The notes under the pieces: model-generated | What the model was told of the DNA's origin: nothing | Database searches by the model: none | What the model saw: only the letters and a program-made list of their open reading frames with translations | Translations under genes and position numbers: made by a program | Part shown: piece after piece, positions 1,615 through 30,657 of the stretch | Layout: each line of letters begins with the position of its first letter | How positions within the stretch are numbered: the stretch's first letter is position 1 | Source: Nemertoderma westbladi | Taxonomy: Eukaryota; Animalia; Xenacoelomorpha | NCBI GenBank assembly: GCA_032718475.1 | Contig: JAUCBJ010000465.1 | Span: 1 to 61,008, forward strand | DNA length: 61,008 nt | Reading direction: 5' to 3'

Positions 1615-1957
1615 GCTCGCAATTCTATTGGATAAGCAAGCGTCACGGTTCTGGCCCTGATTATATTACAGACTATAACTTATAGTGGTGTTATACCATC
1701 AACATCAATTCTGATTTTAATTAATTTTTATTAATTAATTCTTGAAAATAAAAAACTCTTATATTGTTTTAATATAATATTGATAATAAGGTGAGTGTGT
1801 AATAGTCTAGTGTAGGTCTATAATAACTTATACTTCATACTTAATGATGATCGTGTCTAGGGCATACTTTCTATGTTTTTATATTTCGTTATTGGATCGT
1901 CTTATTTAGCTGCGTTTATTTTGTTTTAGAATCGAATCGAAAGAAGATCCATAAAAC

Positions 1958-2050
1958 ATGACTACTGTAAACAGCGCCGAGCCGCCCGGATACAGTCGAT
2001 GGTGCAGCATGCAAGGAAAAAAGTCCCAGTTCAAATACAAAGCCGTGCTG
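1958..2050 (+). CDS. MS4A-like coding exon 1 (MTTVNSAEPPGYSRWCSMQGKKSQFKYKAVL)
   Basis: ATG at 1958, donor CTG|GTGAGT, phase 0. Confidence 0.75.
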
Positions 2051-5000
2051 GTGAGTTTCAAGGAAAAAGTCCCAGTTCAAATACAAAGCAGTGCTGGTGA
2101 GTTTCAAGGGAAAAAGTCCCAGTTCAAATACAAAGCCATGCTGGTGAGTTTCAAGGAAAAAAGTCCCAATTCAAATACAAAGCCATGCTGGTGAGTTTTA
2201 CGGGAAAAAGTCCCAGTTCAAATACAAAATACAAAGCCATGCTGGTGAGTTTCAAGGAAAAAAGTCCCAATTCAAATACAAAGCCATGCTGGTGATTTTT
2301 ATGGGAAAAAGTCCCAGTTCAAATACAAAATACAAAGCAGTGCTGGTGAGTTTCAAGGAAAAAAGTCCCAGTTCAAATACAAAGCCGTGCTGGTGAGTTT
2401 CAAGGAAAAAGTCCCAGTTCAAATACAAAGCAGTGCTGGTGAGTTTCAAGGAAAAAAGTCCCAGTTCAAATACAAAGCCGGGCTAGTGAGTTTCAATGAA
2501 AAAAGTCCCAGTTCCAATACAAAGCCGTGCTGGTGAGTTTCAAGGGAAAAAGTCCCAGTTCAAATACAAAGCCATGCTGGTGAGTTTCAAGGAAAAAAGT
2601 CCCAATTCAAATACAAAGCCATGCTGGTGAGTTTTACGGGAAAAAGTCCCAGTTCAAATACAAAATACAAAGCCATGCTGGTGAGTTTCAAGGAAAAAAG
2701 TCCCAATTCAAATACAAAGCCATGCTGGTGATTTTTATGGGAAAAAGTCCCAGTTCAAATACAAAATACAAAGCAGTGCTGGTGAGTTTCAAGGAAAAAA
2801 GTCCCAGTTCAAATACAAAGCCGGGCTAGTGAGTTTCAAAGAAAAAAGTCCCAGTTCAAATACAAAACCGTGCTGGTGAGTTTCAATAAAAAAAGTCCCA
2901 ATTCAAATACAAAGCCATGCTGGTGAGTTTTACGGGAAAAAGTCCCAGTTCAAATACAAAATACAAAGCCGTGCTGGAGAGTTTCAAGGAAAAGAGTCCC
3001 AGGTCAAATACAAAGCCGTGCTGGTGAGTTTCAAGAAAAAGAGTCCCAGTTCAAAAACAAAGCCGTGCTGGTGAGTTTCAAGAAAAAAGTCCCAGTTCAA
3101 ATACAAAGCCGTGCTGGTGAGTTTCAAGGAAAAGAGTCCCAGTTCAAATACAAAGCCGTGCTGGTGAGTTTCAAGGAAAAAAGTCCCAGTTCAAATACAA
3201 AGCCGTGCTGGTGAGTTTCAAGGAAAAAGTCCCAGTTCAAATACAAAGCCATGCTGGTGAGTTTCAAGGCAAAAAGTCCCAGTTCAAATACAAAGCCGTG
3301 CTGGTGAGTTTCAAGGAAAAAAGTCCCAGTTCAAATACAAAGCCGTGCTGGTGAGTTTCAAGGCAAAAAGTCCCAGTTCAAATACAAAGCCGTGCTGGTG
3401 AGTTTCAAGGAAAAAAAGTCCCAGTTCAAATACAAAGCCGTGCTGGTGAGTTTCCGTGGATAAACTAAATGCAGAATAATTCTACTAATGGAATTATGGA
3501 GTATAGATTAATTATGCAACCTTGGTGGGATAAATATTTCTCCATTTGACGCAACACCGCCGCGGCCGCTATGAGGGAGGTGAATACCGCGGCCGCTCCT
3601 AAAGCCGCAGGCCATCGCTAACTATATAGGTTAACTTGGGATTCTGGGGGACTTTTCGATGAAGGAACAGACCAAATTTTTTTATTTTCTCACCAGGGGA
3701 GCGGCTCGGAATTCTAAGATATTAGCGACTCTAACATTATTAAATCTAACCCTTCGACGGACACGGCGGACAAAAATCCGTCATTTTTTCGACAATTTTA
3801 AAATTTTTTTGAAAGGCGCTCTACAGTGGCTCGAAAAAACCCTAGGTTATTGCTTAGCCGACGCCGGGATACGATAGAAGGGATTAATTAGTGAATTCGT
3901 TTTTTTTTTCAAAAAAGATTACCACGCCTTTTTTCCGAAAATGTCCGTCAAAGTTGAAAAAACGGACAAAATGACTTTGCGGGATCCGCTATAACTCGGC
4001 TAATATTAATCGTACGGGGACGAAAGTAACGCGGTTGGAAAGGGGAAGAGTGGTACTACCTTCGTATCGAATGGGGGTAAGATATTTATTAAAATTTCGG
4101 GTGGAAAAAGGGGCTGTAAATTTGTACGTTTTTGTCCGTCTTTTTTGGAAAACTTATTTCCGAAATGTTTAATTCGACAACGCGGGTAGGAATCCACTAA
4201 TTCTTTTATGAAACTCGTAGAAGACCATTGGGGCTACGTTCCTATCGAATGGGGGTACAAAAAATATGTCGGCAATAGGGGCCAAAAAGGGCCAGAATTT
4301 GTAAAGTAGTTTTTATCGAATAATTTTTTATTTTTAACTTTAGTTGGTTAAGGTACATTCTATACAGTCAATATCCATACGGGGAATTCAAATATCCTAT
4401 CGGTTTTGCTCCAAGGATGATATTAAAAAAATGAGGGCCAAAATTATAATTTCGCGCTTCAAACTTGCTTCGCGGGAAATCGTCTAGCTCGAAAACTACT
4501 TAACTTACGGGAGATTTGTTTACACTGACTTATAGTGCGTTAAATTATCTATCTAACAGCGTTAATCACAGCGCCGGAGGTATTATAAAACTGGAGCGGC
4601 AGGCGATCGTGTGAAATATAATATTTATAAAAAGGGACGAAAAATTTTTTTTTTAACAAATCGCTATTCCATTATAATTTAGCGTATTGCGCCAAAAGTA
4701 CCTGTAAAAAGTTTCAAATTAACTCCGCTATCTTTTATCTTAACATATATAATTAAAATTACGAATTTTAAGGGTCGAAAAATATCGCGTTATTTTGGCC
4801 CTTTTTTTAATTTTTTTGGGGTCAAAAATAACCCCTTCTCAAAAGATTAAGAAAAAAATTACGGCAAAGAATATACCAATATTATTGAATTTGGACCACC
4901 AGAACCGAAGTTAGAGCGATTTTAGTGAAAAAATAAAAATAATTTTTTTTGCAAAAAAATTAAGAATGGTCAGGTCAATATTGGATTTCGAACCCGCGAA

Positions 5001-8000
5001 CTTAGGTTTCATTAACGTGATTGATAACCACTAGACTATGTGACCAAGAGAATTTGAAATTTTCGAGTGACTATTTTAAACATAAATAACTTCGGTTCTA
5101 CTGGGCCGTTTGATCTGAAACTTTTTTCATTATATAGAGGATAGATTGTAGTGTGTGAAATAGGATAAAACTTGGGAAAAGACTTATGTGCACTTAGTGC
5201 AAAATGCACTTAAATAGTGAACATTTTTTCGATATTTCAAACACTGTTATTTCCAGTTCTATTCATCGTAGAATGTTATTTTTTGGATTAAAATGTAGTT
5301 TGGAATGATTTCTAACTATAATCGTAACATTTGTTTAACTTTTTATGTCTATAAAGTGACTTAAAAATGTCCATGAATATGGTCCAAAATCGCAAATCCA
5401 GATTTATTAAATTGGATTTTTGACACTTTTAGCGACTGACACTTGATCATACACCATCGTAGATCGGTAGAGGATAAACATAAGTTTGTTAAATAAGAGC
5501 CACCATTACGATCTGCTAAAGTGCATTTGTACAAATAAGTGTGCAAAAGTGCAAATTTTTTAATAAGGTCAAATTATATAGTATTGGGTTCTTTTCTTTG
5601 CAGATACTTTATTTTCATATTAATATGTTGTTTGAACCTTACTGAGCGCATTAGGGGATATGCGTACAAATAACCGGCCCTTATGAGGCTTCGATTGGGT
5701 AAATTAATAAAACATAAGGTTGTATAGTATAATATTCAAAAACCAGTGTGATATTAAATGCACTTTAAAAATAAATAGAAATCAAATAACAATTGGACCA
5801 CACAATTAAAAACTCGCACAATTTTGTACTTATTATATCGCTTCAAATTAATTCAACAGTGGATATTTGTGGGAAGGGGGAAGTTTGGTGAACTGCATTT
5901 ATGCAGTGAATCCAAACTTCCCCCTTTGATATATCATATACTTAAGACATGCTAGGGTGATGGGGAAATATTTGTTACTGTCACACTTTGCTTCCATTTA
6001 TCCTATCCTTTATTATTACCCCAGTCAGATAAGAGATAATAAATCAGTAAAAACTAAACTAAACTGTCTTTCATGCAAACAAATTTCTAACTAAAGACGG
6101 GTGAATGACCATGACCATGGAAATAATTTTAAATATAATTGTATATCAACTATTTGGGGAGGCTTCCAAGTTAAACCCGAAAACAATTATTTTGTTACAA
6201 ATATAGTAAATAACGTTGTATGTTCTTCTTCCTCTCATTATAAAATATAAATGAAATATCTCAGATAGCTATGCCCAGTAACATTTCACAACCAAAATAT
6301 TTAAGTGTGAAAAGTGTAGGCCTACCACACTCCGCCCAAACAACCGCAAACGCATAGCCAACAAATTTAACAAAAGGTTACATACATGTTGGGTTCATGA
6401 CGAGATGAGTGAAAATTGATCGCGTAATATAAAGTAAAAAATTAAGAGACGGGCTGGCTCTCCTCCACTTTCTTACCCAATGGATATGTTGTTGTAATAA
6501 TCTAATATTGGGGCGCCTTTCTCTCGGTTTGTTGGTTAAAGAATATATAAAAGATGAGAAAGGCCCTAACAAATTAAATAAACTGAAGAAGATCCTCAGT
6601 ATTCTAGTCAGCATTACTTTAACATAAATTATTCCAAGTTGCTGTATGGCCACCGAGCTGCATTGTCCACCAGTAAAAACGACCGTCACCCGCTGAAGCA
6701 ACGTCACAGATATACTGACACTGGTACCGGTGCCGGTACAGCCCAGTATCGACGAGCAGATGATGCTGCTGAAACAACATCACAGAATGATGTACTGACA
6801 CTATGGTACCGGTGCCGGTACTGCAGTACTGCGCAGTATCGACAGGCAGATGATGCTGCTGAAACAACATCACAGAATGATGTACTGACACTATGGTACC
6901 GGTGCCGGTACTGCAGTACTGCGCAGTATCGACAAGCAGATGATGCTGCTGAAACAACATCACCGAATGATGTACTGACACTATGGTACCGGTGCCGCTA
7001 CTGCGCAGTATCGACAAGCAGATGATGCTGCTGAAACAACATCACAGAATGATGTACTGACACTATGGTACCGGAACCGGTATAGCAGTACTGCGCAGTA
7101 TCGACAAGCAGATGATGCTGCTGAAACAACATCACAGAATGATGTACTGACACTATGGTACCGGTGCCGCTACTGCGCAGTATCGACAGGCAGATGATTC
7201 CGCTTTCTGAGATGAACAAAACAAAACCGCAGGCCACGCACTTAAATTACATTCGCCACACTCGAAGATTCCAAGGACGAAGGCTCAGAGACTTAACGAC
7301 CTGTCAGCTTCCATGGCTACCATGGATGTGTGACACTGCATTATTTGTGGTGGTGATACATCATCATGGAATTGTGTGGATGTCGATCCATTTAGCCTAC
7401 ATGTTGTTGTCTCGTTAATGTATGTAGTACCTTCTATTAGAGCACGTATTAGTAAACATCTCGCTTTCTATTGTGTAGCAAACCTTGTCGGTTGCCAGAA
7501 TTTACGATAATAAATGTATGGGTTTTAGGTCTTCCAATTCAATGTCTGGTATAATTGACAATCACTGACATATAAGTCGCCTCTGACATTTAATCGCGCG
7601 CTCCATTGTATCATATATTTTATAGCCACACGTCCCATCCTCTAATCAGGCCTTCTATTAATGTATTGTTTAATGCCATGGTTAAGCATATGTGCTCAGA
7701 TAATTTTCCCACTACTGTGCCTGTGTTGAGGAATGTGATTGAACTTGGCAATAACTGTATGTAAATCTTTGGATGGGCTGACATTTAAACATTATTTTAT
7801 TCCTATTTGTTGGGTTGTAGGTACTGCAATTATAAACTATAGCAATATGGTAATGGTACTGTACTCTGCATAATTATAATATACTGTAAATTATTCAGTT
7901 TCGTACTTCCAGATTATTGTCCATTTAATCAAGTTGGTCGTTTATTCAACAATAACAGTTTGGCAATGAAGAGAATGTTTCAGAATGACCTTTGCAATAT

Positions 8001-11000
8001 TAATACAAAGTTTATTAACTCAAATAAATACATTAAATATATGTCATAGTAGGAAAGATGTCATGTTATATAATTTTTTGTATATTTTTTTTAGGTTCTC
8101 AGTTTGATCCAGCTTGGGATTTCAGGACTCCTTGTGTGCGCTGGAGGTCACGCGATGGCTATGATGGGAGCCGTTGGTGGTGGAGTCGTGGTTGGCGGTG
8201 TACTGGTGAGTTGGTGGTGGAATCGTGGTTGGCGGTATACTGGTGAGTTGGTGGTGTACTGGTGAGTTGGCGGTGTACTGGTGAGTTTGCGGTGTACAGG
8301 TGAGTTGGCGGTGTACTGGTGAGTTGGCGGTGTACTGGTGAGTTGGTGGTGTACTGGTGAGTTGGTGGTGGAATCGTGGTTGGTGGTATACTGGTGAGTT
8401 GGTGGTGTACTGGTGAGTTGGTGGTGTACTGGTGAGTTGGCGGTGTACAGGTGAGTTGGCGGTGTACTGGTGAGTTGGCGGTGTACTGGTGAGTTGGCGG
8501 TGGAACCATGGTTAGAGGGGTACTGGTGATTTGGTGGTAGAAGCATGGCTGGCGGTGTACGGGTGAGTTGGTGGTGTACTGGTGAGTTGGCGGTGTACTG
8601 GTGAGTTGGTAGTGTAAGTACTGGTAGATTGGTGGTGGAATTATGGTTGGCGGTGTATACTGGTGAGGTTACTTAAATATGTTTTTGGACTGAAGCAATT
8701 CGTGTAAAAATATTTAACTCGCCACGAAAGGGGATCGAATTCGTGTCTGCCACTTAGAATGCAAATCTCCTACCCACTACTGTACCCACTGCTACCTCCT
8801 ACCCACTACTGTACCCACTGCTACCTCCTACCCACTACTGTACCCACTGCTACCTCCTACCCACTACTGTACCCACTGCTACCTCCTACCCACTACTGTA
8901 CCCACTGCTACCTCCTACCCACTACTGTACCCACTGCTACCTCCTACCCACTACTGTACCCACTGCTACCTCCTACCCACTACTGTACCCACTGCTACCT
9001 CCTACCCACTACAGTACCCACTGCTACCTCCTACCCACTACTGTACCCACTGCTACCTCCTACCCACTACTGTACCCACTGCTACCTCCTACCCACTACT
9101 GTACCCACTGCTACCTCCTACCCACTACTGTACCCACTGCTACCTCCTACCCACTACAGTACCCACTGCTACCTCCTACCCACTACTGTACCCACTGCTA
9201 CCTCCTACCCACTACTGTACCCACTGCTACCTCCTACCCACTACAGTACACCACGGTACACCAATTACTAGGGAAGCCAACTTGCGGTAATTGTCGATAA
9301 ACATTTCGATACTTTTTTTATTATTTACTCTTCTGTGTTTTGAATAATTTATAAATTTGTTTTCCAGTTCATGATAACTGCTGTGATCGGTATTATAGCT
9401 TCGCAAAGGAAGTCTACTGGCATGGTGAGTGTAAATTATAAAGTTGACCATACTGGCCATATTACTGTATATAATTTTATACATTATATTAGGCCCTAAC
9501 CTACAAGTAACTAACCTACAACACATTAAACAAAATCTGGACAATTTAGACTTGATTCACCTATTACCCTGCTGCATTAAGTATCCCTGCCCATGACTAT
9601 AACACTATCAAAATGAACAATCAAGATTATTATTAATAATTGGATGCGATTATATTTCAGGTTGTTAGTCTTTTGGTGATGTGTATTATTAGCTTCCTTG
9701 TCTGTATTGTGCTCGTATGCATTGGTGCTGCAAAGTCGGGGTAAGTTGATATTTAATAAAAATTTTCTATTCTGTCATCTATTCTTTTAATTTATATTTT
9801 AACATCAGTTAATTGTCATCATCAGGTAATTTATGATACTTATAAGAGAGTTAACGAAGGGATTAAACTGTGACAAGTATAAGCCTACAATGCACACATC
9901 TCCAACCAGACACTATATAACATTGGAGGTGTCAATGTAAATAAATTGTGCTTGCCAATTTTGGATGGATTGCATGGTGTAGGCATAGTATTTTTGTTAA
10001 GCCGGCATAGCATCTCAATGTGCAGTTTCAAAGCAGCAGGCCGATTACGATTAATGCACAGATATGCGTTCTTACAATCATTTTCAGTAATAGTTTTATG
10101 ATAACAAAATGTTCTGCATCTACTTCTTCCCGATTTGCTGAGGAACATAAATGAAAAAAAAGTAAAGTAAAGTTTCCTTCGTCCATTTGGCCGTGGATTA
10201 TTCCCAGTGTGGCCCGCCCAGAACTATACGAAACTGGTACTCATTCACCTACCATTTAAGGCTGCAGGGTGTGGTCCCTGGCTCTGTTTAAACTTTAAAA
10301 CATTAAAGCCGAACGAAAACTACCTTTATCCCCTTGTGGGGATTGAACAGACGTCCTCCGGAGAGATGTGAATACAAGGCAACATATCTAACCAAACCAC
10401 TACACCAAGGTGGGACATTAGAGTAGTAGACCTTGCCTGATATAAAAACAAACCATTATCCTACTTGCAGGGTGTAGTTTTTGTGAGTTCTAGTATTGTT
10501 CCTAAAATAAACTCAATATCAAGTTGCCCTCTGTTGCATTAGTCTACTCCACAGTTGAAGACACCACTGATGAATATGTTTTTGGTTGAGTCGAATTTGT
10601 TAGATCTTTTACCACTAATATGATACCTTTAAGTATTAACTATAAGAGGTATACTAGGTAACACCTTGGTGTAGTGGTTGCATTGAATTCACATCTCCCG
10701 TAGGTCGTGGGTTCGATCCTCACATGGACCAGGGCAGTTTTCGTTTCGGCACGAATGCTTTAAAGGTACCAGCCAGGGCGCATCTCTGCCTTGCATCCTT
10801 AAGTTGTAGCTAAATTAGTACTGGAGGTTCCTCTGGGGAGTAAAGTTCTTGGGGGATCGCACTGGAAATAAGTCGTCAGACTTTGTGCGTAAACACTGGC
10901 CTAACGCCGAAGAAAATTTACTTTTACTTTTTACTTTTATAAGAGGAAACTTTGGATTTTAATTGGCCCAGAAGACATCAAGGGTTACACCTATAACACC

Positions 11001-14000
11001 ATTCTAACAGAAATGGGTACTTACTTTTAGACCTAATGGAAGAATGTGAATTGATACCAACAAACAACACATTCGAAAAGAGTAAGGGGAAGCTATGGAC
11101 CTTCCAATACCCTAATGGAACCAAAGCACAACTGGATTACATCCTTATAAACAAAAAGTGGAGAAACAGCATGATCAACTGCGAGGCATACAGCTCGTTC
11201 AACCTAATTGGTTCGGACCACATAATTGTGACTGCAGAGATCAGACTCAGTTTGAGAGCCAGCAAATCCAGGACAAGCAAGCAAATCAACTATGACTGGG
11301 AGAAACTCAGAACTGACAATGCAGTTGAGGATGCTTACACAGTAGAAGATCAAAACCGCTTTAAAACACTTCAGTCAATGGATGAAGACCAGTCCACCGA
11401 TTCAATATACCAGAATATAATAACAGCCCACAAGGAATCAGCTCCTGTATGTAAGAGGCATATCCCCCAGAAACCCAAACGAAAACAGTATGTGCCATGG
11501 CAAAACTCTGAGGTTACTTGTAAGAGAGAAGATCTTATGATAGCCTACAAAGTAAAAACCGAACAACCAACAACCGAAAACATTAACAAGGTTGAGAAAG
11601 CTAAGGACGATCTTAAATTGGCCTACAACATCAGCCAGGAAAAGTACATACAGGATAAAACTGAAGCAATTACAACTGCTCACATAAAGCAACAATCAAG
11701 AGTTACCTGGCAAACTGTAAATGAGGTATATGGTCGGAAAAGTTGTGCAAAGGGGCGCCTCAAAGCCGATAGTCCTGAAGAACGTGTTGGGAAGTGGAAA
11801 AATCAAATCAGCAACTTGTTTGGGCAGCCACCAAACATCGCGGTCAGCCCTACAAGGAAAATATATGACAAGACACTACCTATAGAAACAGGGGACTTCA
11901 CACCTGCCGAACTCCAAAGAAGCATTAAAAGCATGTCCAATAATAAAGCGAGTGGATTAGATGAAATCTCCGCGGAGGTATGGAAAACAGGAGTGCTAAA
12001 CAGACCATTATTGAATGTTTGCAACCGGATGTTAAAAGGGGAGAAGCCACCACCAATTTGGACTAAAGGTCAACTAAAGCCTCTCCCCAAGAAAGGAGAC
12101 CTCGGTGTACCAACAAACTATCGTGGGATCTGTCTGCTTGTGGTAGCTGCCAAAATATACAATAAAATGATTCTATATAGGATTAGACCTCACATAGAGA
12201 AACTACTGCGTAAGAGCCAAAACGGATTTCGACCAAATATATCAACAATAGCTCAGATACTTGCACTACAGAGACTGACTGAAGGAATTAAGTCAAAGAA
12301 TCTCCCCGCAGTTATGACTTTTGTGGACTTCAAGAAGGCATTCGACTCCATTCATAGAGGTATAATGCTTGAAATCCTAAGAGCTTATGGAATACCAGAA
12401 GTAATTGTTGCTGGCATTGGATTGTTATATTGTGACACAGAAGCACAGGTACTCTCACCAGATGGTGAAACTGAGTTTTTCTCAAACCTGGTTGGCATAC
12501 TGTAAGGTGACACATTAGCACCATTACTATTTGTAATTGTACTGGATTACCCAATGAGGACGGCCACAAGGGGTGAAGATCTGGGATTCACACTTCAAGA
12601 ACGCAGAAGAAGTAGATATCCGGCAACTACAGTCACAGATACCGACTTTGCGGATGACATCGCCCTGCTTTCTAATACGCTAGCAGATGCACAGCTTCTA
12701 CTAAATAAAGTGGAGAGAGCTGCAAAGGAGGTTGGATTGCATATAAATGCTACCAAGACCAAATTCATGACTTTTAATGTTGATGGCAACTTGACAACCA
12801 TTGATAATAATCAACTAAGGAAGGTTGATGACTTCCAGTACCTAGGATTATGGATAGAGAGTAGCAAAAAGGACATATAAGTTAGGAAAGCAAAGGCTTG
12901 GTTAGCTTTATTAAAAATGGATACCATCTGGAAATCAGATCTCTCCAGGCACCTGAAGACTAAGTTCTTTCGAGCAACAATGGAAAGTGTATTTTTATAT
13001 GGGGTGAGACCTGGACACTGACTAAATCACTTGAACAACGAATTGATGGTTGCTACACAAGACTACTAAGGGCAGCCCTAAACATCAGCTGGAGACAACA
13101 CATGACAAACGCCGAGCTTTATGGTACAATACCACCTGTATCAACCACCCTCCGTGAATGCAGATTAACCCTATTACCACTGGGGGGGGGGGGCCGAATC
13201 GGCCCCTTCCTAGTTTTTAGTTGCTGTAACTATGCAACCACATTACGTACCGGCCCAATTTTTTTGTGAGAATTAGCCAAATTTAATGCCGCATCTTTTG
13301 CAAAAAACGCCGTTGCAATTGGATTTCTACTTTTCCATTTGGGTGCCACCTCAAAATTTGGTCTCCAGCACCAAATTTTTTGAAATTTTCGAATTTTACA
13401 AAGTCATTCGTGATTTAGTAATTATTTATGTTTGGGCTATTTTTATTTATTTTTATTGGTTTGGATCACTCTAATGCTCTATACAAGTATGTAAGTGTAG
13501 TGGTACGTCATTTTTGGAGCACCAAATTTAGGGCGTGGCACTTTAAAATTTCAAAATTACTTTATTCGGAAAATTTACTAAAGTTCTGATTTCGAAGCAT
13601 TTTTATTGGTTTTCTGGAGCGCTGAATCGATTAAAAGTAGTATAGAAGCCTGAAGACTTAGTGGTTCGCCATTTTTGGTGCACCAAAATTAGGGCGTGGC
13701 ACTTCAAATTTTGAAAAATACGAGATTCGGAAAATACACTAAAGTTTTGATTTGCAAAGCATTTTTATAGGTTTCCTGGAGCGCTGAATCGATTGAAAGT
13801 AATATAGAAGCCTGAAGACTTAGTGGTTCGCCATTTTTGGTGCACCAAAATTAGGGCGTGGCACTTCAAATTTTGAAAAATACGAGATTCGGAAAATTCA
13901 CTAAACACTAAAGTTTTGATTTCAAAAAATGGCTAACTTCTAAGTCTTCAGGCTTCTATATTACTTTCAATCGATTCAGCGGTCTGGAAAACCTATATAA

Positions 14001-17000
14001 ATTTTGGTACAATTTTGGTTTATTTTCCGAATCTCGTATTTTTCAAAATTTGAAGTGCCACGCCCTAATTTTGGTGCACCAAAAATGGCGAACCACTAAG
14101 TCTTCAGGCTTCTATATTACTTTCAATCGATTCAGCGGCACAGAAAACCCATAAAGATGCGTTGAAATAAAAAAATTAGGGGCATTTTCTGAATATCTAA
14201 TTTTTCAAAATTTGAAGTGCCACGCCCACTTCTTAGGTGCACGAAAAATAGCATCCACTTCAATTTTTGGAAGTGGAATATAATCACATTCGATTCAGCG
14301 TCTTGAAAAACCTACTAAATCCAGCCAACACTGCCACACTATTAGTTTTTAGAAAACGAAAAATTTTGTAATTTTGTCCTGGGACTACTGTTATTTTTCA
14401 TCAAAATTATGAGTCCCTGCTTATGAAATTTTAACTTTTTAAGGTTTGGTAGTGTTCATCTATAGTTGTTTCACCAACAGCCCAAATTTTGTAGGATTTC
14501 ATTGGACGACTACAAAAATATAGTGGGTGGGCCGAATCGCCCCCCCCCCCCCCCCCCCCCCCCAGTGGGGCTAATGGTCAAAACACCCCAGTGGTAATAG
14601 GGTTAAGATTCAGTGGGCACTGCTGCCGAAGTAAAGACGAGGTCATACCAGATATACTTTTCTGGCAACCAACTCATGGAAAGCGTAGTCGCGGATGACC
14701 GACTATAACATATATAGATCAACTTGAAAGGGATCCTGAACATGGGAAAAATGAAATTGCGACAACTATGGAGAATTGAGAAGCCTGGAAGAATTTTATT
14801 TCCACTGTCCGAGTTCGCTCGACTTAGTAGTAGTTGTATAAGAGGAAACTTTATCCAATATGCTCAACTGGTCAAAACTAGGAGTGAGAATGCTCAACTG
14901 AGATATATCTGTAGCTTTATTAATTTGTGCACTTTAACGTTATTTTGTGCTTTTCTTGTGCTGTTTATGTTTTGTTCTCATATTGTCTTTGATTTTGTGT
15001 GTATCTCTTGGGAAAGTCATATCTAGGCGTAATCTGGAATACTCAGTCAATAATGACACCTTTTTAATTACAAATAATTACTAAGAGGAGTTTCAGATTA
15101 CATTTATTGAGGATTTAAAAGGACCATATATGTATCCTGTCAGTACGTGCGTGGATGTACTGACAAATCATGTATTCTGAAGCGGCAGGTTCTTCCTATT
15201 ATTTCAGGCAGAACTTCCACAAAACAGAACAAAACAGGACAAAACAGCGCTCTCCAAAAAGACACCATGATACATTCAGGTTCAGCAATTTGATATAGGC
15301 GTATACGTTTACATATTAATTACCATTTAAACCTCCAATTTATTATATATGGCTGCTAAGTTACCCACTACAGTAGTACCACTACAAGCACAACCTGTTA
15401 AAAAAATCTTTATGTGCCTCAGTATGAAACAAGAACAACAATTCAAAATTATCAGACAGCATTCGTTGTTATGTGACCCTATATTAGTCACCAGGAGTAG
15501 GCCAACTGGTTCTCCAGCAGACGAGGTTTGGATAAACACCTTGGTGAACAGAAATTCCCACTTGCGAAGCGAAGCGTCAAGATGTTGAGGGTTGATGAAG
15601 GTATTTTATTCTTCCCAGAGTTCGTCATTGGGATGGCGCCTGTAGCAGCAACATGTGTAGCTTTTAAGCATATATGAATTCTGATTCGTATTTCTGTCTT
15701 AATCATTACCGGTATCATCAATACGTCTTTGATTTCACTAGATGTTTTAGATTAATGAGAATGAACAACTACATTATAACAAGCAAGGCTGTAATTGTGG
15801 GACTAACCTTTCCTAACATCTTCTAATAGAAGAAGCAAAATCAGTCAAACTCATATTGGTTGTTTCAGCATCATTTTATTTTATATATTTTCAAAATTTA
15901 CATTCGGGTATTAGTTTATTCAACTATGTGATGCTTAATTATTATTATTATATTTTTTAATTATATCGGTATCATTTTCCCCACCTTAAGAGTGGCATAA
16001 CACACATTTTAGATTTTCTCATTATTGGAATGTTTTTACTTCCCTCATAATAAGATTTCCTTCTGTAATTTATTTATATAATTCCATTCTAGCCATGGCG
16101 GCCATGGTGGACATGATTATGACACCTATTATAACCAAAATGGAAACATGGGTTGGGACATGGGTTGGGGGGGAAGAGGAGATCTCTCAGGTAGAATGGT
16201 GGAAGAATTGCTCCAGGATGACGAGTGGACTAACATCATAAGGGAACGCTACTCAGAAGATATGGATAGCGGTGAAGATGAGAAGTCAGTGGAAAACACC
16301 GTAGCACCAACCTACCCAGGTATTTAGTAGTACAGTACCGTAGCACCAACCTACCCAGGTATTCAGTATAAATTGTTGACCGGTTTAGAATGTTCAACTA
16401 TAAGTCGTATTTACATCCACCTTCGCACAGTCATGCAGAGAACTCTGATAACAATAATTAAATACGCCATACATTAAAAAAAACCCAAGTAATTAAATAT
16501 TAACAAAAGAAAATTCATTATTTAAATTCGCAGTAAATTCGATTTTTTCGCAGCAAATTCAGGTGTTAAATTTGTCTCTAAAAGAATCTAAGTTTGACTT
16601 TAACTTACTATAATCTACGTATTGAACTGAATCTGAAATTCCTCATGTTTTGTACTTTGTGATATGTTTTTCTACTTGTTAATTAAATAATTTATACGTT
16701 TATATTTTAGATTCAATAACAATTGGAGGTCAAACCATTCAGGTGACTGACATCGTGAATTATCTGCGTGAAAATAAAATAAAACAATGGCCATTCCTAT
16801 TGCATTTAATGCAAAGTGCCAAACCGACTATTGAGCAAGAGATCGCGAAGTTGGAAACAGTTCTTACAGCCAAAGATATACCACAGGAATTTATTGACAA
16901 TATGAAAACCAATCTTGCCACCCTCGATTTCCCAGGATTTATCGAGATCTTGGCCACCAAGATGTCCATGCACACACCTGAGGATATTACGCGATTGTAC

Positions 17001-20000
17001 CTCCATCGGGATTTGGTCAAACACGCTGGTAAGTCCCTCATCGAAGAAGGACATTGTCCTGATCCCGATAGGCTCAAGAAAGCTGGACCTATTGCACCTG
17101 AAATAATGCATGTGTTAGCGAAAATGAAACTCACAGGAGTGACGTTGAAAGGCAATCCAGTAGAAATGATTTGCTCAAATGGAGAAGATAAGATGTTTAA
17201 AAAGGCGGTCGGAGTAATAATGGTGAAATACACTATGCTGAAGAGAGCGGTGTTGGGAATGCTGCGTTTGGGAGGCCCTGTTCCACTTCCCATGGGAATG
17301 GGAGGAATGCAAGAAGGAATGATGAAAGGTATGTCGGGTTATGGCAGTGGATCTTCTGAAGGGCACGGTGAATCTAGTAGAGGGCGTGATGAATATAGTA
17401 GAGGGCATGGTGAATCTAGTGGCAGCAACGAGGGAAAGGATGATATGGCTGAAATTCTTCAAGGAATGAAAGGAGGCCGAGGCGAGAGTGACATGCCTCT
17501 CCCACACGGTGGTCCTGTAAGTTTCTGCTTAAAATATTATATATAATTGCATTTAATTTAATTTATTTTATTTAATTATTGCTAATTTTGATATTCTTGT
17601 ATTAACAGTTTAACTTCATTTTTTTTACCTTTACTCCATAGAGCTGTTGGAATAAACAGCAAATGTACACGTAGCTAACTAACTAACTTAATTAACTTAA
17701 TTAAGATAAAAATAAGCCTCAGCGGTACCGGGTGAAGTTTACCTATCTGCTATACCTTAATATTTTATTAATAATTATTTCCGTATTTTTCTGTCCCGTG
17801 CAATAGCAATATTTATTGTCTAATGTTACAGGGAAATTACGGTAAAGCCCCTGTTTATGTGTTGGGCTTCTTTGTTGTAGTCCACCTGATCCTCATTGTC
17901 GTTGTGGCTATCCTCTGTATCCGAGCTATCTGCCTGAGTCGAAAAAGAAGATGTTATGATGTCAAGGCGGTTTCAGTACCTCATGGTTAGTAAATATAGA
18001 CTACCCAACTGTGTCTGTAACTCATACTACCCCATTATCAAATTAATTCTATATAAATAATACTTTTTTTAATCTATGCCCTCATGCGGAGCAATTCTAT
18101 TCTATAGAATACCGCTATATTAATATCGCCCTACCAAATATTCTCCAATGTGAATTATTCATAATATTTAGATCTCGAGTACAAATCGCCATCGCAGTTC
18201 GACCAGGATGTGAAAAGAAATGGAGCTTTCAAGGCGACTCCTACTATGGTAGTTCCAAGGATGCCAGGTGTAAACGGTAAAGGTAAGTCAATGCAATGGT
18301 AGTTCCAAGGATGCCAGGTGTAAACGGTAAAGGTAAGTCAATGCAATGGTAGTTCCAAGGATGCCAGGTGTAAATGGTAAAGGTAAGTCAATAAAATGGT
18401 AGTTCCAAGGATGCCAGGTGTAAACGGTAAAGGTAAGTCAATGCAACAGTAGTTCCAAGGGTGCCAGGTGTAAATGGTAAAGGTAAGTCAATAAAATGGT
18501 AGTTCCAAGGATGCCAGGTGTAAACGGTAAAGGTAAGTCAATGCGATGCTAGTTTCAAGGATGCCAGGTGTAAATGGTAAAGGTAAGTCAATAAAATGAT
18601 AGTTCCAAGGATGCCAGGTGTAAACGGTAAAGGTAAGTCAATGCGATGGTAGTTTCAAGGATGCCAGGTGTAAATGGTAAAGGTAAGTCAATGCAATGGT
18701 AGTTCCAAGGATGCCAGGTGTAAATGGTAACGATAAGTCAATAAAATGGTAGTTCCAAGGATGCCAGGTGTAAACGGTAAAGGTAAGTCAATGCAACAGT
18801 AGTTCCAAGGGTGCCAGGTGTAAATGGTAAAGGTAAGTCAATAAAATGGTAGTTCCAAGGATGCCAGGTGTAAACAGTAAAGGTAAGTCAATGCGATGGT
18901 AGTTCCAAGGATGCCAGGTGTAAACGGTAAAGGTAAGTCAATGCGATGGTAGTTCAGGTGTAAACAGTAAAAGTAAGTCAATGCAATGGTAGTTCCATGG
19001 ATGCCAGGTGTAAACGGTAAAGGTAAGTCAATAAAATGGTAGTTCAGGTGTAAATGGTAAAGGTAAGTCAATGCGATGGATGGTAGTTCCAACAATGCCA
19101 GGTGTAATCGGTAAAGGTAAGTCAATGCGATGGTAGTTCCATGTTCCAAGGATGTCAGGTGTAAATGGTAAAGGTAAGTCAATAAAATGGTAGTTCCAAG
19201 GATGCCAGGTGTAAACGGTAAAGGTAAGTCAATGCAATGGTAGTACCAAGGATGCCATGTGTAAATGGTAAAGGTAAGTCAATGTAATGGTAGTACCAAG
19301 GATGCCAGGTGTAAATGGTAAAGGTAAGTCAATGCAACGGTAGTTCCAATGATTCCAGGTGTAAATGGTAAAGGTAAGTCAATGCAACGGTAGTTCCAAT
19401 GATTCCAGGTGTAAATGGTAAAGGTAAGCCAATGCAACGGTAGTTCCAATGATTCCAGGTGTAAATGGTAAAGGTAAGTAAATAAAATAGTAGTTCCAAG
19501 GATGCCAGGTGTAAATGGTAAATGTAAGTCAATAAAATGGTAGTTCCAAGGATGCCCGGTGTAAATGGTAAAGGTAAGTCCCTAGAATGGTAGTTCCAAG
19601 GATGCCAGGTGTAAACGGTAATGGTAAGTCAATGCAACGGTAGTTCCAATGATTCCAGGTGTAAATGTTAAAGGTAAGTCAATGCGATGGTTGGTAGTTC
19701 CAAGGATGCCAGGTGTAAATGGTAAAGGTAAGTAAATTACATGGTAGTTCCAAGGATGCCAGGTGTAAACGGTAAAGGTAAAAGGTAAGTCAATAAAATG
19801 GTAGTTCAGGTGTAAATGGTAAAGGTAAGTCAATGCGATGGATAGTAGTTCCAACAATGCCAGGTGTAAATGGTAATGATAAGTCAATGCGATGGTAGTT
19901 CCAAGGATGCCATTCACATTCAATAAACGGGCAGTGAAAATGGAGGGCTCTTTGATTTCGATGAGTACCTACACTATGAATGATGTGGCACGGTAAAGAT

Positions 20001-20931
20001 ATAACACCATAAACAAAGATGCCATGCTTCCAATGGGACTTCACGAATTGTCGTTCATAAAGTGAACGGAAACCGAAAGTTTAATAACAGATTGAGCAAT
20101 GGCGGTGAGCGCTTGTACGGGTAGATAGCGATGTTGACGCACCTGTACCGGTTACGATACTGCAGTTGCAAAGATCTTCCGTCGGAACCACAGCATCCAC
20201 GGCGAAAAGATCCGGAATATCTAATAAAATAGATTTCGACAGTAATAAACCTCGCCATACTGGAACGTAGTTAACGTCCTCATGCAGTCATGGTCTCTAA
20301 TCTTGTGATACGATAGAGCGGTTTCAGAAGCAAACTTCAATCGATATGTCAACTGCCTCTCAGCCATTATATTCATTTATGATAAAATCTTACAAGTTGC
20401 CTACAGTATACCTATACACAGTTACATAGGCTACTGTGGAACCTAAAACTTAGTTTACAATATCAGTTCAGTCAGTCAATAGGTAGGCCTATCTACTTGC
20501 AAAGCGCGAACCGGACCAAAGTAGAAAGTTTAGATTACCAAATCAGCAAGTTGAAGTAGAGACTATGGTAGGCCTACTGTAATTATATATACGAGTTGAC
20601 ATGCAGAACAAACAAAATTCCGATATTTTGAAACTCTTAATCGGAATAATTTACTTACTGTATATATTAAAATAATTTACATTACCAGTGATTTGACAAA
20701 ATGATATGGCGTAATTGTGTACTTGTGTAGTTGACTTTTTACTTATAGGCAAGCGCGAAAGGGCATTTACCTATTTTTAATACGACACAATTAGGCCTAC
20801 CTAATCATGGATATAATAATATGGAATTTGCCTCTACAGACCCCGGTGTAGGTAAATAAAGTATTACAATTTCTGTTCTAGGTGCGGCCACACAGGATCC
20901 TCCACTCTACAAGGAACAAACTTCAGACTGA
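1958..20931 (+). CDS. CD20/MS4A-like four-transmembrane protein, 562 aa; join(1958..2050,8095..8205,9368..9424,9661..9740,16093..16319,16711..17516,17832..17985,18172..18282,20882..20931)
   Basis: All 8 introns are GT-AG with compatible phases (0,0,0,2,1,0,1,1); 1689 nt with no internal stop. Hydrophobic segments AVLVLSLIQLGISGLLVCAG, GVVVGGVLFMITAVIGIIA, MVVSLLVMCIISFLVCIVLVCIGA and VYVLGFFVVVHLILIVVVAILCIRAIC match the CD20-like pattern. Family call is by eye. Confidence 0.82.
2012..3454 (+). repeat. Minisatellite, 46-48 bp unit (some units with a 6-bp AAATAC duplication), ~30 copies; unit = end of exon 1 + splice donor
   Basis: Unit CAAGGAAAAAAGTCCCAGTTCAAATACAAAGCCGTGCTG|GTGAGTTT read directly; a higher-order block around 2101-2460 recurs around 2540-2850. 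Confidence 0.95.
3560..5690. mobile_element. Putative non-autonomous DNA-transposon-derived sequence (boundaries unresolved)
   Basis: CpG-containing, homopolymer-rich non-coding composition like the interiors of the MITEs in this window; no TIR or TSD pair found. Confidence 0.25.
4973..5045 (-). pseudogene. Degenerate tRNA-like sequence / SINE head
   Basis: 73 nt on the minus strand, GGTCA...TGACC ends, A-box-like TAGTCTAGTGG and B-box-like GGTTCGAAATCC; stems are poorly paired. Confidence 0.4.
5874..5926. repeat. 53-bp hairpin (collapsed MITE-like)
   Basis: Arms AAGGGGGAAGTTTGG / CCAAACTTCCCCCTT with inner ACTGCAT / ATGCAGT. Confidence 0.6.
6700..7197. repeat. Minisatellite, 90/81-bp unit, ~5.5 copies
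   Basis: Unit GTATCGACAAGCAGATGATGCTGCTGAAACAACATCACAGAATGATGTACTGACACTATGGTACCGGTGCCGGTACTGCAGTACTGCGCA; explains the repetitive ORFs at 6619-7418. Confidence 0.92.
8095..8205 (+). CDS. MS4A-like coding exon 2 (TM1 and start of TM2)
   Basis: T-rich tract + AG at 8093-8094; VLSLIQLGISGLLVCAGGHAMAMMGAVGGGVVVGGVL; donor CTG|GTGAGT. Confidence 0.85.
8173..8667 (+). repeat. Minisatellite, 19-bp unit (37-bp long variant), ~20 donor copies; unit = end of exon 2 + splice donor
   Basis: Unit GTTGGCGGTGTACTG|GTGA; the long variant adds the exon-derived GTTGGTGGTGGAATCGTG. Confidence 0.93.
8767..9249. repeat. Minisatellite, 29-bp unit, ~16 near-perfect copies
   Basis: Unit CTCCTACCCACTACTGTACCCACTGCTAC; explains ORF 8759..9271. 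Confidence 0.95.
9368..9424 (+). CDS. MS4A-like coding exon 3 (FMITAVIGIIASQRKSTGM)
   Basis: TTTTCCAG| acceptor, ATG|GTGAGT donor, 57 nt, phase 0/0. Confidence 0.85.
9661..9740 (+). CDS. MS4A-like coding exon 4 (TM3)
   Basis: TTTCAG| acceptor, GG|GTAAGT donor; VVSLLVMCIISFLVCIVLVCIGAAKS(G). Confidence 0.85.
10160..10416 (-). mobile_element. tRNA-derived SINE copy
   Basis: Reverse complement has A-box TGGTGTAGTGG, a degenerate B-box and a (TTTAC)n tail; alignable by eye to the + strand copy at 10650-10937. Confidence 0.75.
10650..10937 (+). mobile_element. tRNA-derived SINE copy
   Basis: A-box TGGTGTAGTGG, B-box GGTTCGATCC, tail TTTACTTTTACTTTTTACTTT; flanked by TATAAGAGG at 10641 and 10938 (probable TSD). 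Confidence 0.8.
11036..13164 (+). pseudogene. Disrupted RTE endonuclease/reverse transcriptase ORF
   Basis: ORFs 11036..12505 and 12554..12880; stop inside the GIL*GD (QG) motif, another stop at 12878-12880 and a frameshift near 13005. Confidence 0.9.
13169..14602. mobile_element. Non-autonomous piggyBac-type DNA transposon (1434 bp)
   Basis: TTAA TSD (13165-13168, 14603-14606), 17-bp TIR CCCTATTACCACTGGGG, internal direct and inverted repeats; removing it restores the LINE reading frame. Confidence 0.93.
16093..16319 (+). CDS. MS4A-like coding exon 5 (Gly/His/acidic start of the large loop)
   Basis: TTCTAG| acceptor phase 2; GHGGHGGHDYDTYY...VAPTYP; donor CAG|GTATTT phase 1. Confidence 0.8.
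16298..16363 (+). repeat. Two-copy duplication (39-bp period) of exon 5 end + donor
   Basis: ACCGTAGCACCAACCTACCCAG|GTATT at 16298-16324 and 16337-16363. Confidence 0.92.
16711..17516 (+). CDS. MS4A-like coding exon 6 (806 nt, helical domain plus G/M/S/E-rich linker)
   Basis: TTTTAG| acceptor, same frame as ORF 16743..17546, donor CCT|GTAAGT. Confidence 0.88.
17832..17985 (+). CDS. MS4A-like coding exon 7 (TM4 and basic stop-transfer RKRR)
   Basis: TTACAG| acceptor; GNYGKAPVYVLGFFVVVHLILIVVVAILCIRAICLSRKRRCYDVKAVSVPH; donor ATG|GTTAGT. Confidence 0.85.
18172..18282 (+). CDS. MS4A-like coding exon 8
   Basis: TTTAG| acceptor; DLEYKSPSQFDQDVKRNGAFKATPTMVVPRMPGVNGK; donor AAG|GTAAGT. Confidence 0.8.
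18246..19912 (+). repeat. Minisatellite, 50-bp unit, ~33 copies; unit = end of exon 8 + consensus splice donor
   Basis: Unit ATGGTAGTTCCAAGGATGCCAGGTGTAAACGGTAAAG|GTAAGTCAATGCA. Confidence 0.95.
20882..20931 (+). CDS. MS4A-like last coding exon (GAATQDPPLYKEQTSD*)
   Basis: TTTCTGTTCTAG| acceptor, phase 1 fits exon 8; TGA ends at 20931; AT-rich 3' region with AATAAA at 21488-21493. Confidence 0.72.
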
Positions 20932-21545
20932 GTAACCGTTGCTATGCAACGATTCAACTCTCAAAAACAACCAAACTCACAAACTTTATTTATTTACAAA
21001 GTTACCAAGTTACGTAGATGACTTAGGCACTGTATATAAAAACACATTTGAAATTTTTGAAGCATGCCATAGTGTAGGCCACTTCTTTGTAGAGATTAGA
21101 TTATTTGCTTTGATATATTTCATGGTTTTACATAATTTATTTATCGTATCACAATAATTGTAGGCAACGATAATCATTTTCTATTCATTATTTGTGTAAC
21201 TTGATTGTTTTACAAAATGAATTCATTATTATAACCTATTTCACTGACTTGTAAATATATTATTCTCATCCCAATCAACTATATAACTTATTTTTTTTTG
21301 AGATGTGTTATTTTCTGCCATGCGTTATCGTTATTTCCTGGATATTAGCAACAACATAATTATTATTACCTGGGTATACATTTAATGGTGGCGCCATAAA
21401 AAAATGGATTGACAGTTGACACTAGTGCCGGGACTAGCGGCCGTTAAGGAACATACCTACCTTTTATTTCATTCAAAAACAGTTAACAATAAACATAACA
21501 ATGTATTCAGATTAAGAAGGTAGTTCCGAGCCCATATCTTCATGT

Positions 21546-22853
21546 TCTGCTGTCCAGGTGGGAAACCACTGCTAGAGAGCAGGAACAATCCTGTCTGCTG
21601 TACAGGTGGAGAACCACTGCTAGAATGCAGGAACAATCCTGTCCAGATGGAGAAACACTGCTAGAGAGCAGGAACAATTGTGTCTGCTGACCAGGTGGAG
21701 AACCACTGCTAGAGAGCAGGAACAATCCTGTCCAGATGCAGAAACACTGCTAGAGAGCAGGAACAATTGTGTCTGCTGACCAGGTGGAGAACCACTGCTA
21801 GAGAGCAGGAACAATCCTGTCTGTTGTCCAGGTGGGGAACCACTGCTAGAGTGCAGGAACAATCCTGTCTGCTGTTCAGGCGGAGAACCACTGCTAGATA
21901 GCAGGAACAATCCTATCTGCTGTCCAGATGGAGAACCACTGCTAGAGAGCAGGAACAATCCTGTCCAGATGCAGAAACACTGCTAGAGAGCAGGAACAAT
22001 TGTGTCTGCTGACCAGGTGGAGAACCACTGCTAGAGAGCAGGAACAATCCTGTCCAGATGCAGAAACACTGCTAGAGAGCAGGAACAATTGTGTCTGCTG
22101 ACCAGGTGGAGAACCACTGCTAGAGAGCAGGAACAATCCTGTCTGTTGTCCAGGTGGGGAACCACTGCTAGAGTGCAGGAACAATCCTGTCTGCTGTTCA
22201 GGCGGAGAACCACTGCTAGATAGCAGGAACAATCCTATCTGCTGTCCAGATGGAGAACCACTGCTAGAATGCAGGAACAATCCTGTCTGCTGTCCAGGTG
22301 GGGAACCACTGCTAGAGAGCAGGAACAATTCAGTCTGCTGTCCAGGTGGAGAACCACTGCTAAAGTGCAGGAACAATTCAGTCTGCTGTCCAGGTGGAGA
22401 ACCACTGCTAGAGAGCAGGAACAATTCTGTCTGCTGTCCAGGTGGATAACCACTGCTAGAGAGCAGGAACAATTCTGTCTGCTGTACAGGTGGAGAATCA
22501 CTGATAGAGAGCAGGAACAATTCAGTCTGCTGTCCTGGTGGAGAACCACTGCTAGATAGCAGGAACAATTCAGTCTGCTGTCCAGGTGGAGAACCACTGC
22601 TAGAGAGCAGGAACAATTCAGTCTGCTGTCCAGGTGGAGAACCACTGCTAGAGAGCAGGAACAATTCAGTCTGCTGTCCAGATGGAGAACCACTGCTAGA
22701 GAGCAGGAACAATTCAGTCTGCTGTCCAGGTGGAGAACCACTGCTAGAGAGCAGGAACAATTCAGTCTGCTGTCCAGATGGAGAACCACTGCTAGAGAGC
22801 AGGAACAATTCAGTCTGCTGTCCAGGTGGAGAACCACTGCTAGAGAGCAGGAA
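21546..22853. repeat. Minisatellite, 48-bp unit (41-bp variants), ~28 copies
   Basis: Unit GTCTGCTGTCCAGGTGGAGAACCACTGCTAGAGAGCAGGAACAATTCA; explains the ORFs at 21540-22837. Confidence 0.95.
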
Positions 22854-22933
22854 TAAACAAAAAAACTAAAACAATAAACGAGAGTTACGGATATTTTAGA
22901 ATATATTAATAGAGAATCAGCAGTCAGATATAT

Positions 22934-23128
22934 GCTACAGGACCTAACTCTACAGGACCTAATGCGCCAAGACCTAAAGCTACATGACCTAATGCGCCAG
23001 GACCTAACGCTACAGGACCTAAAGCTACGAGCCCTAATTCGTCAGGACCTAATGCGCCAGGACCTAACGCTACAGGACCTAATGCGCCAGGACCTAACGC
23101 TACAGGACCTAATGCGCCAGGACCTAAA
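22934..23128. repeat. 15-bp minisatellite, ~13 copies
   Basis: Alternating CAGGACCTAATGCGC / CAGGACCTAACGCTA. Confidence 0.9.
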
Positions 23129-27279: not shown

Positions 27280-27287
27280 CCATTCAT
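25662..27287 (-). CDS. Uninterrupted 541-aa partial RT + RLE endonuclease ORF of the CRE-like element (copy 1)
   Basis: ORF track; lacks the N-terminal RT motifs; ATG lies within the TSD. Confidence 0.7.
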   Translation of the reverse strand: MNGKEIINSDNGSQQGDPLASLFFSSDIHGFVDSLNCIFNVWFLDDGSLGGSALSVAENLKTIISEAAKLGLSIKPSKCELIFHKDFPKSLKESTLATFQSITPDIKPFDFEESILLGAPLGDKALETVLVQKHLELSTFASRLHLLSAHDALYLLRHCFAIPKLMYTLRCAPCFTSPQLDIFDETIKKALEIALNIQLDDITWRQASLPIALGGLGVSSTRDISIPAFLASFSGCGPLLQSLLPPPIIEAPNHWFDQGLRALPTDYEVPINPIFQKAWSNPLDVTASKKILDGAKSPSHKARLLASVADHAGDWLHAMPISSLGLRLEDDQLRVGVALRLGAPISVEHNCRGCGGLVDRWATHGLLCIHNYGKFTRHAEANDIIHRALTSAGVVSTLEPRGLSHDGKVPDGMTLAPWATGKPLVWDFTCRDTLAASHLPGTSSTAGAAAASAESAKLRKYTELQHNYHFTTIAVETLGDIGSEGTQILREIGRRISLKSAEPRATTFLFQRLSMAIVRGNATAVLGTLPAKADLNEILLL

Positions 27288-27574
27288 TTAAATTATGTTT
27301 ATTCCTTTATTATTACGTCACGTGAACGTGAAGTAAACAAAATTGCACCCTAACACCACGTATGAGTAATTTCAATGAAATGAAATGTAATATAAGTAGA
27401 TTTGAGAGTCAGGATCAGGGAAGGGGAACGGAAAGACAGGCTAGCTAATTAGCAGGGCTGGTAGACGCTAGTGCTATCCACCGTATTCCGCATGATGTGG
27501 GGGGCACTAATCAGACACAGACTCAGTCAATGAGACAGGGGGGGGGGGGGGGGGGACTGAACGCAAATCCCATC

Positions 27575-27742
27575 TTGGCGAATTAATATCCCGCCTCAAT
27601 GTTAAATTCTCAATTCATAGGGAAAGGAGCAGGAGCAGGAGCAGGTTACAGTGGCTCGTTATTTTAACCAAAACAATAAACTAAACACAATAGAACAGGT
27701 TACAGTTTTATTTTTGAGAATTATCAGCTGTTATTTGCGTCG
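27575..27742 (+). repeat. Dispersed non-coding repeat family (core CAGGTTACAGTGG...TAACCAAAACAATAAAC)
   Basis: Related copies at ~33705, ~41047, ~49097-49252 (inverted), ~54152, ~56628 and ~57841. Confidence 0.7.
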
Positions 27743-28859: not shown

Positions 28860-28950
28860 GTCACTACTCAGTCTCTAGACGACTTCAACTTAAACCTTCC
28901 CAACACCTACAACCTCCTGTTGGCCCCCAAATCGACAGTTTCCAGTATCG
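28860..28950 (+). other. Candidate 5' non-coding exon of zinc-finger gene copy 1 (copy 2 ends at 42422)
   Basis: CpG-richer segment ending TCG|GTGAGT at 28950; start position is approximate. Confidence 0.4.
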
Positions 28951-30300: not shown

Positions 30301-30657
30301 GTCCTACCTATTGCGTCTATCACTTTAAAATATTCCGTTTTTCGAGACACTCCATAATCACATTAATCAGTGCTGCAATATTTTCTAAGACCCCTTTACA
30401 GGTTATAATATTTCAGTCAGTATCAGTAATTAATGGTGCTTATTTTATATTTTATGTTTTTTTAGTAATTTAAGTATCAAACCTCACACGTATTAATTTA
30501 CAATATCGAATCGAAAATCTTATTTATTTACATATATGAATTTAAAACTACAGTAATTAGCAAGTTCTATTGACTAATTATTGCATTAATTACTTCAATT
30601 ATTCTCGTTTCCAATATTCTCCATTATTAATCCACTCCACTCCATTATTTTCTCTAG

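Follow-up and report, generated by a model that had tools for sequence, protein, structure and literature searches.

In a contig of the xenacoelomorph Nemertoderma westbladi (GenBank assembly GCA_032718475.1, contig JAUCBJ010000465.1), we found that the end of a coding exon, together with its 5' splice site (donor), has been copied head-to-tail into the following intron at four of the eight coding donors of a single predicted gene, those of exons 1, 2, 5 and 8. The stretch analysed, hereafter the window, comprises positions 1 to 61,008 of the forward strand. It is animal DNA of about 39% GC, with long interspersed nuclear elements (LINEs), zinc-finger genes and numerous tandem repeats, and was chosen for its striking look from about 250,000. 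The four arrays have the structure that defines mirage minisatellites, since their head-to-tail units span an exon-intron boundary and reiterate its splice signal. They probably represent four local duplications across exon ends, three of which grew into minisatellites, and are likely neutral because the first donor likely stays in use.

The first units of the arrays, all on the plus strand, contain the exon 3' ends at positions 2050, 8205, 16319 and 18282, with the authentic donors CTG/GTGAGT, CTG/GTGAGT, CAG/GTATT and AAG/GTAAGT, respectively (the slash marks the junction). Array 1 (2012..3454) was reported by Tandem Repeats Finder (TRF) as 30.0 copies of a 47-bp unit made of the last 39 nt of exon 1 and 8 nt of intron; it holds 30 junction copies, 29 of which have the GT, and a higher-order block of 436 bp. 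The TRF unit of array 2 (8173..8667) is 37 bp (33 exon and 4 intron nt) with a 19-bp sub-unit, and its 19 junction copies have all kept the GT; the array has a strong G skew (0.70). Array 3 (16298..16363) escaped TRF, but a search for exact words revealed it through 27 identical bases. It is a single duplication at 39-bp spacing, with a unit of 22 exon nt and 17 intron nt (donor plus spacer), and its second donor, at 16358, lies downstream of an in-frame stop. In array 4 (18246..19912), TRF counted 33.4 copies of a 50-bp unit composed of the last 37 nt of exon 8 and 13 nt of intron; the GT is present in 32 of 34 junction copies, and the array terminates partway through an exon-derived stretch. 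Allowing up to 3 mismatches, the junction copies thus number 30, 19, 2 and 34, or 85 including the four authentic ones. The GT is present in 82 of these and the exact authentic 9-mer in 67. A preliminary description of this DNA had read the four arrays as exon ends plus donors of one gene, with roughly 85 potential donors and half of the coding donors duplicated, and our count agrees on each point. Its term "tandem amplifications" suits arrays 1, 2 and 4, but array 3 is a two-copy duplication.

In arrays 1 and 2 the first unit is identical to the consensus of its array (0 differences each), and in array 4 it deviates at 1 position. No unit of the four arrays matched the window more than 2 kb away, which indicates that the arrays arose locally and are not part of a dispersed satellite; a dispersed satellite or transposon origin was rejected on the same ground. 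Mixed unit lengths and the 436-bp higher-order block indicate past turnover, and units of 40, 46, 54 and 57 nt break the frame. Given the varied units and higher-order blocks, we infer that the arrays are not an assembly artefact. The remaining splice sites are unduplicated: no copy lies near the other four coding donors, the nine acceptors of the gene or seven other predicted donors of the window (at least 5 mismatches in 16).

The host gene was modelled from sequence alone, using a joined open frame, strong splice sites and codon periodicity. The model has nine coding exons on the plus strand, separated by GT-AG introns, and encodes 562 codons with no internal stop. The first coding exon is an internal exon (1930..2050, coding sequence 1958-2050, ATG at 1958) preceded by a non-coding donor at 1790. 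Exon 2 (8095..8205, 111 nt) encodes most of a first hydrophobic segment and the first part of a second. It is followed by exon 3 (9368..9424, 57 nt) and by exon 4 (9661..9740, 80 nt), which encodes the third segment; the donors of both are unduplicated. Exon 5 (16093..16319, 227 nt) contains in-frame tandem duplications of 9 and 12 bp. The donors of exon 6 (16711..17516, 806 nt), with a 287-codon open frame, and exon 7 (17832..17985), with the fourth hydrophobic segment, are also unduplicated. Exon 8 (18172..18282) is 111 nt long, and the last coding exon (20882..20931) carries the stop codon and a motif that we take to be PPxY-like; an AATAAA lies at 21488. With simple scores, all eight donors fall within the top 3% of GT sites in the window and five of eight acceptors within the top 3% of AG sites. 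The chance expectation for a 287-codon open frame in the window is about 1.5e-4. Codon-position bias is strong: the eight small exons alone gave a chi2 of 40.4, whereas the highest value among 2000 overlapping pieces of intron was 11.6. We consider the host gene well predicted, though unproven.

The predicted protein has four hydrophobic runs (residues 27-50, 51-82, 83-117 and 461-497, Kyte-Doolittle), as in a tetraspan protein. Exon 6 encodes a predicted helical region and a Met/Gly/Ser-rich stretch, and appears to form the orphan loop of this tetraspan-like protein. No relative of exon 6 was found in 1.84 billion representatives, among 2165 candidates of 470-2000 aa or among 75 pattern matches in metagenome contigs, which yielded no second allele of the window either. 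Exons 6 and 2 had no Atlas match, and a PDB search with exon 6 gave nothing meaningful (best E 0.67 and 1.9). A single-sequence AlphaFold model of 197 residues reached a pLDDT of 46. The layout resembles that of MS4A/CD20-like tetraspans, in which short phase-0 exons, one of them of 57 nt, encode three hydrophobic segments near the N terminus, followed by a big loop and a fourth hydrophobic segment. The loop predicted here differs in being about 345 residues long and without homolog. The Pfam CD20 profile did not match exons 1, 2, 4, 5, 6 and 7 (six of nine), scanned singly in frame as short pieces. According to one survey, invertebrates have no clear MS4A genes and short membrane-segment matches are unspecific (PMC2826416).

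We next considered what the extra donors would do if used. Splicing from 80 of the 81 would lead to an early stop. The full frame would be kept only by the first donor in arrays 2-4, and by the first and third in array 1, where the copy 3 donor would add 31 residues in frame. This supports, as far as the sequence can tell, the earlier claim that the most upstream donor is normally chosen. The limit for nonsense-mediated mRNA decay (NMD) lies 50-55 nt before a junction. The array 4 stop codon ends at position 18302, 30 nt upstream of the copy 2 junction and 80 nt upstream of the copy 3 junction. Because its stop is only 30 nt from the junction, a message spliced at copy 2 might escape NMD, with loss of the last exon and its PPxY-like motif. 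As for acceptors, 17-27% of background AGs score as well as or better than the best acceptor-like AG of the respective array. With no strong acceptor in the arrays, the spliceosome is unlikely to treat the copies as separate exons, and we rejected the idea that they serve as micro-exons.

The preliminary description treated this arrangement as new. It belongs, however, to a class already named "mirage", of which it is a dense case, and first-donor choice has been shown experimentally in human F7. Lancelet mirages are known in Adh3, troponin C, the globins BflGb6 and BflGb9, and PGBD5; their splicing was reported to be undisturbed and length instability was noted (PMC3087553, PMC3902484), while the generating mechanism was termed unclear (PMC3087553). 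As in Nemertoderma, the tandem unit straddles the border of an exon and an intron and brings the splice signal with it. The lancelet unit sizes (10-72 bp in Adh3, 60 and 108 bp in PGBD5) overlap with those found here, and PGBD5 has two arrays in one gene, the first units of which both abut 5' splice sites. The copies of BflGb6 are 81-100% alike (PMC3087553, PMC3902484). The Nemertoderma gene differs in having four duplicated donors and up to 34 copies, compared with 2-7 copies in the globins and PGBD5, and in being affected on the donor side only, whereas both sides of the boundary are involved in lancelets. Normal splicing and length instability were demonstrated there, whereas the Nemertoderma gene is known from one sequence.

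In human genes, variable number tandem repeats (VNTRs) at exon-intron boundaries have been described in F7 intron 7 (37 bp, 5-9 copies), CBS intron 13 (15-20 copies), 6-16 intron 2 (25 pseudo-sites), LMNB2 (100 bp, 10-15 copies) and PDGF intron 4 (81 bp, 16-18 copies) (PMC1557585). Only the most upstream of the 5-9 identical donors of F7 intron 7 is used, and 50 constructs demonstrated an oriented 5'-to-3' selection in which the pseudo-donors are functional but outcompeted by the most upstream donor (PMC1557585). The first donor alone is used in F7, LMNB2 and PDGF, and two extra ones in 6-16 and CBS (PMC1557585). In these genes, as in ours, the authentic donor lies in the first unit, identical pseudo-donors follow in the intron, and copy numbers are similar. 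There is, however, one array per gene, the F7 unit has 4 exon and 33 intron nt whereas the Nemertoderma units are mostly exon, and donor use was measured in human genes but is predicted here. The available part of a further paper (PMC10078293) contains nothing on boundary-spanning arrays.

The arrays could have formed as follows. The region would often make short tandem duplications, and its GC-richer exon DNA would seed them at least as often as intron DNA. A duplication lying wholly within an exon would survive only if in frame. With its 3' end past the donor, a duplication would place all new copies in the intron and leave the first donor and the mRNA intact, and the array could then expand freely through unequal exchange or slippage. 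Splicing would be directed to the first donor by exon definition and by 5'-to-3' selection, the copies having no good acceptor for exons of their own; as the spliceosome likely stays with that donor, all later copies would leave with the intron. Rare use of a later donor would give early-stop messages, likely degraded or harmless. The observations that bear on this scheme are that the units consist of exon end plus donor, that the first unit lies within the open frame and that later donors break the frame. Moreover, the intron part of the units (8/47, 4/37, 17/39 and 13/50 nt) is small, and the units are exon-heavy compared with uniform placement (P=0.04). Exons of the host gene carry in-frame duplications of 9, 12 and 21 bp, at 1.8 per kb of coding DNA versus 0.8 per kb of intron, a non-significant difference (p=0.2). 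None of the ten other large arrays contains a plus-strand donor-like 9-mer scoring at least 7. The exon-heavy units and the donor-only pattern fit a duplication across the donor. This mechanism explains the survival and shape of the arrays better than their number, four.

We therefore asked how often such a number would occur by chance. When arrays were collapsed to one unit, the expected number holding a donor was 0.34 of the gene's 10 arrays, with probabilities of 1.5e-4 for four or more and 3.3e-3 for three or more. With transposons removed and GC at least 0.40, 6.9% of 45-nt windows contain a donor, and these GC-matched nulls gave 3e-4 (4 of 6), 1.3e-3 (4 of 8) and 3e-3 (3 of 5). Four of eight donors are duplicated versus none of eight acceptors (Fisher p=0.077; none of nine acceptors in the whole gene). 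Clustering within the host gene is thus unlikely by chance, P being about 1e-4 to 3e-3. Coincidence, which the preliminary description had named as the outcome that would undo its reading, is improbable within this gene under several nulls, for a window that was picked afterwards. With about 250,000 windows to choose from, chance alone should yield a gene with a P of 1e-4 to 1e-3 somewhere. A literature search, with subscription papers largely outside its coverage, found no genome-wide test of arrays starting at donors.

Several points weigh against neutral duplication across donors. Even under the most generous null, with the exon duplication rate set at three times that of the in-frame survivors, the probability is 2.8e-3 for four or more arrays and 0.02 for three or more, although this null depends on one exonic event. 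The neutral filter would account for survival but not for the excess over the intron background. First-donor use in Nemertoderma is assumed from other species, and human 6-16 and CBS also use two pseudo-donors (PMC1557585). The empty homolog search with exon 6 leaves the direction from exon to array without the support of an array-free ortholog. An acceptor-side array is known in BflGb6 (PMC3087553, PMC3902484), which weakens a strict donor-only survival rule. Finally, per-copy variation is lower at donor columns (2.4%) than at others (5.8%), a difference inflated by non-independent copies that share changes through higher-order duplication.

Because duplication across the donor explains the count of four less well, a mutational bias at donors retains a minor share of our confidence. 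Repeat birth or expansion would then be biased to 5' splice sites in this lineage, for instance through breaks or slippage at sites of polymerase pausing or U1 loading or at G-rich exon ends, and the arrays would still be silent; we regard this as a rather doubtful alternative. The contrast between four of eight donors and none of nine acceptors speaks for it, with within-gene P values of 1.5e-4 (4 of 10 arrays) and 3e-4 to 1.3e-3 (GC-matched), and so does the position of the 3' unit end, 4-17 nt past the donor in all four arrays. Arrays 2 and 4 are G-skewed with two-tier G-quadruplex (G4)-like motifs, but array 1 has neither G skew nor G4 motif; G4 motifs have been reported as enriched close to splice junctions (PMC9065059). 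Against it, the P values are those of a window selected post hoc, none of the seven other predicted donors in the window is duplicated, the geometry is opposite in human F7 (4 exon and 33 intron nt; PMC1557585), and nearby arrays arose from non-junction DNA, in one case from the end of a tRNA-like short interspersed nuclear element (SINE). It seems to us unlikely that tandem duplications of this lineage preferentially arise with a 3' end just a few bases downstream of a donor, with splicing or transcription at the donor steering where germline minisatellites form.

It is far less probable that selection maintains the arrays, whether as decoy donors, as platforms for U1 loading or as an expression dial coupled to NMD, with copy 2 of array 4 possibly giving a stable isoform that lacks the PPxY-like tail of the last exon. 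The GT present in 82 of 85 copies, the lower per-copy variation of donor columns (2.4% versus 5.8%) and the copy 2 stop, 30 nt before its junction and below the NMD limit of 50-55 nt, are what could be cited in favour. We compared donor columns (-3 to +6) with the other unit columns in arrays 1, 2 and 4, with 33 of the 34 copies of array 4 and, for array 2, the 21-nt core alone. Donor columns carried 13 of the 66 distinct substitution alleles and make up 27 of 118 columns (p=0.66), in a test of such low power that a two-fold constraint would escape it. Variable columns numbered 10 of 27 at donor positions versus 42 of 91 elsewhere (p=0.51). The higher conservation of GT(A/G)AGT positions that had been proposed as a check was thus not seen at this power. 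Changes at 2976, 18732 and 19878 destroyed the GT in three copies, copy number ranges from 2 to 34, and the starts of arrays 4 and 1 folded no better than shuffles (z 0.43 and -0.03). Rfam and ARAGORN returned no match, and structured RNA was rejected. Most lancelet and human cases were reported to be silent (PMC1557585, PMC3087553, PMC3902484). There is no positive support for a decoy or U1-loading function: the suggestion that the arrays are retained for a function meets donor columns that change as much as the others, three lost GTs, frame-shifting units and ordinary folds.

Equally hard to sustain is the view that the arrays came first, as intronic minisatellites with a donor motif that captured exon ends, or that the gene model is partly wrong or the gene dead. 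In its favour, the exons tested yielded neither a homolog nor a Pfam family nor a confident fold. Against it, a plus-strand donor-like site occurs in only 3.8% of random 45-mers made into tandem units. The first unit of array 1 encodes the beginning of hydrophobic segment 1 and that of array 2 the middle of segment 2, and both segments continue across the junctions. Moreover, nine exons join without a stop, all eight donors rank within the top 3% of background GT sites, and codon periodicity is strong.

The locus is rich in arrays, the first 23 kb containing seven with at least 5 copies and units of at least 15 bp. Further large arrays without donor motif lie at 6736-7198 (90 bp), 22932-23127 (15 bp), 47695-48669 (52 bp) and 50707-52024 (10 bp). 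At 8767-9254, a 29-bp unit from the 5' end of the tRNA-like SINE (minus strand) is repeated in 16.8 copies that are 98% alike, so arrays also start at non-junction features; we take motifs in this element, seen by eye, to be A- and B-box-like, and ARAGORN and Rfam gave no match to the array. At 21546-22853, 27.8 copies of a 48-bp unit look, on the minus strand, like a duplicated acceptor: the first AG (22839) ranks in the top 0.8% of AGs and is preceded by a long pyrimidine tract, and an exact 14-nt junction motif occurs in 15 copies. About 110 nt past the last copy (21462-21571, minus strand) stand a stop, an AATAAA and a donor-like AAG/GTAGGT. This could be an acceptor-side mirage of a putative antisense transcript, or chance.

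Intron 4 of the host gene contains, at about 10990-14830, a broken LINE (RVT_1, E 1e-14) whose named relatives were from Amphiura (43-44%), Branchiostoma floridae (41%) and Saccostrea (39%). An insert of roughly 1.4 kb splits this LINE. The insert shows inverted similarity within itself (13510-14249), contains 162-bp repeats, has runs of G/C close to its ends and is probably a non-autonomous DNA transposon. A second gene at 31620-35025 is short, multi-exon and coiled-coil, and resembles a myosin tail fragment (PF01576, E about 1e-8, below cut-off); a search with one of its exons gave no match. It carries in-frame coding repeats of 39 bp (x5.2) and 54 bp (x2.2) that start directly after acceptors, and none of its four clear donors is duplicated. 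A 6.9-kb direct segmental duplication (24206-31044 and 37666-44517, 99.4% identity) contains a fragment of an element without long terminal repeats (non-LTR) and a C2H2 zinc-finger gene. Its copies differ in the finger array, the first having a 92%-identical 84-bp finger repeat and ending sooner. Many perfect two-copy 8-bp tandem duplications, possibly transposon footprints, are scattered over the whole window.

The donor ladders of this gene are a trap for gene prediction. They also constitute a natural experiment, in which four independent ladders of 2-34 near-identical donors in one transcript bear on the strictness of first-donor use outside mammals and lancelets. The finding would gain weight if arrays proved, genome-wide, to start at donors more often than exon composition and survival account for. 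If a donor bias were true, genes with four independent arrays would be its footprint and a natural test bed for first-donor selection.

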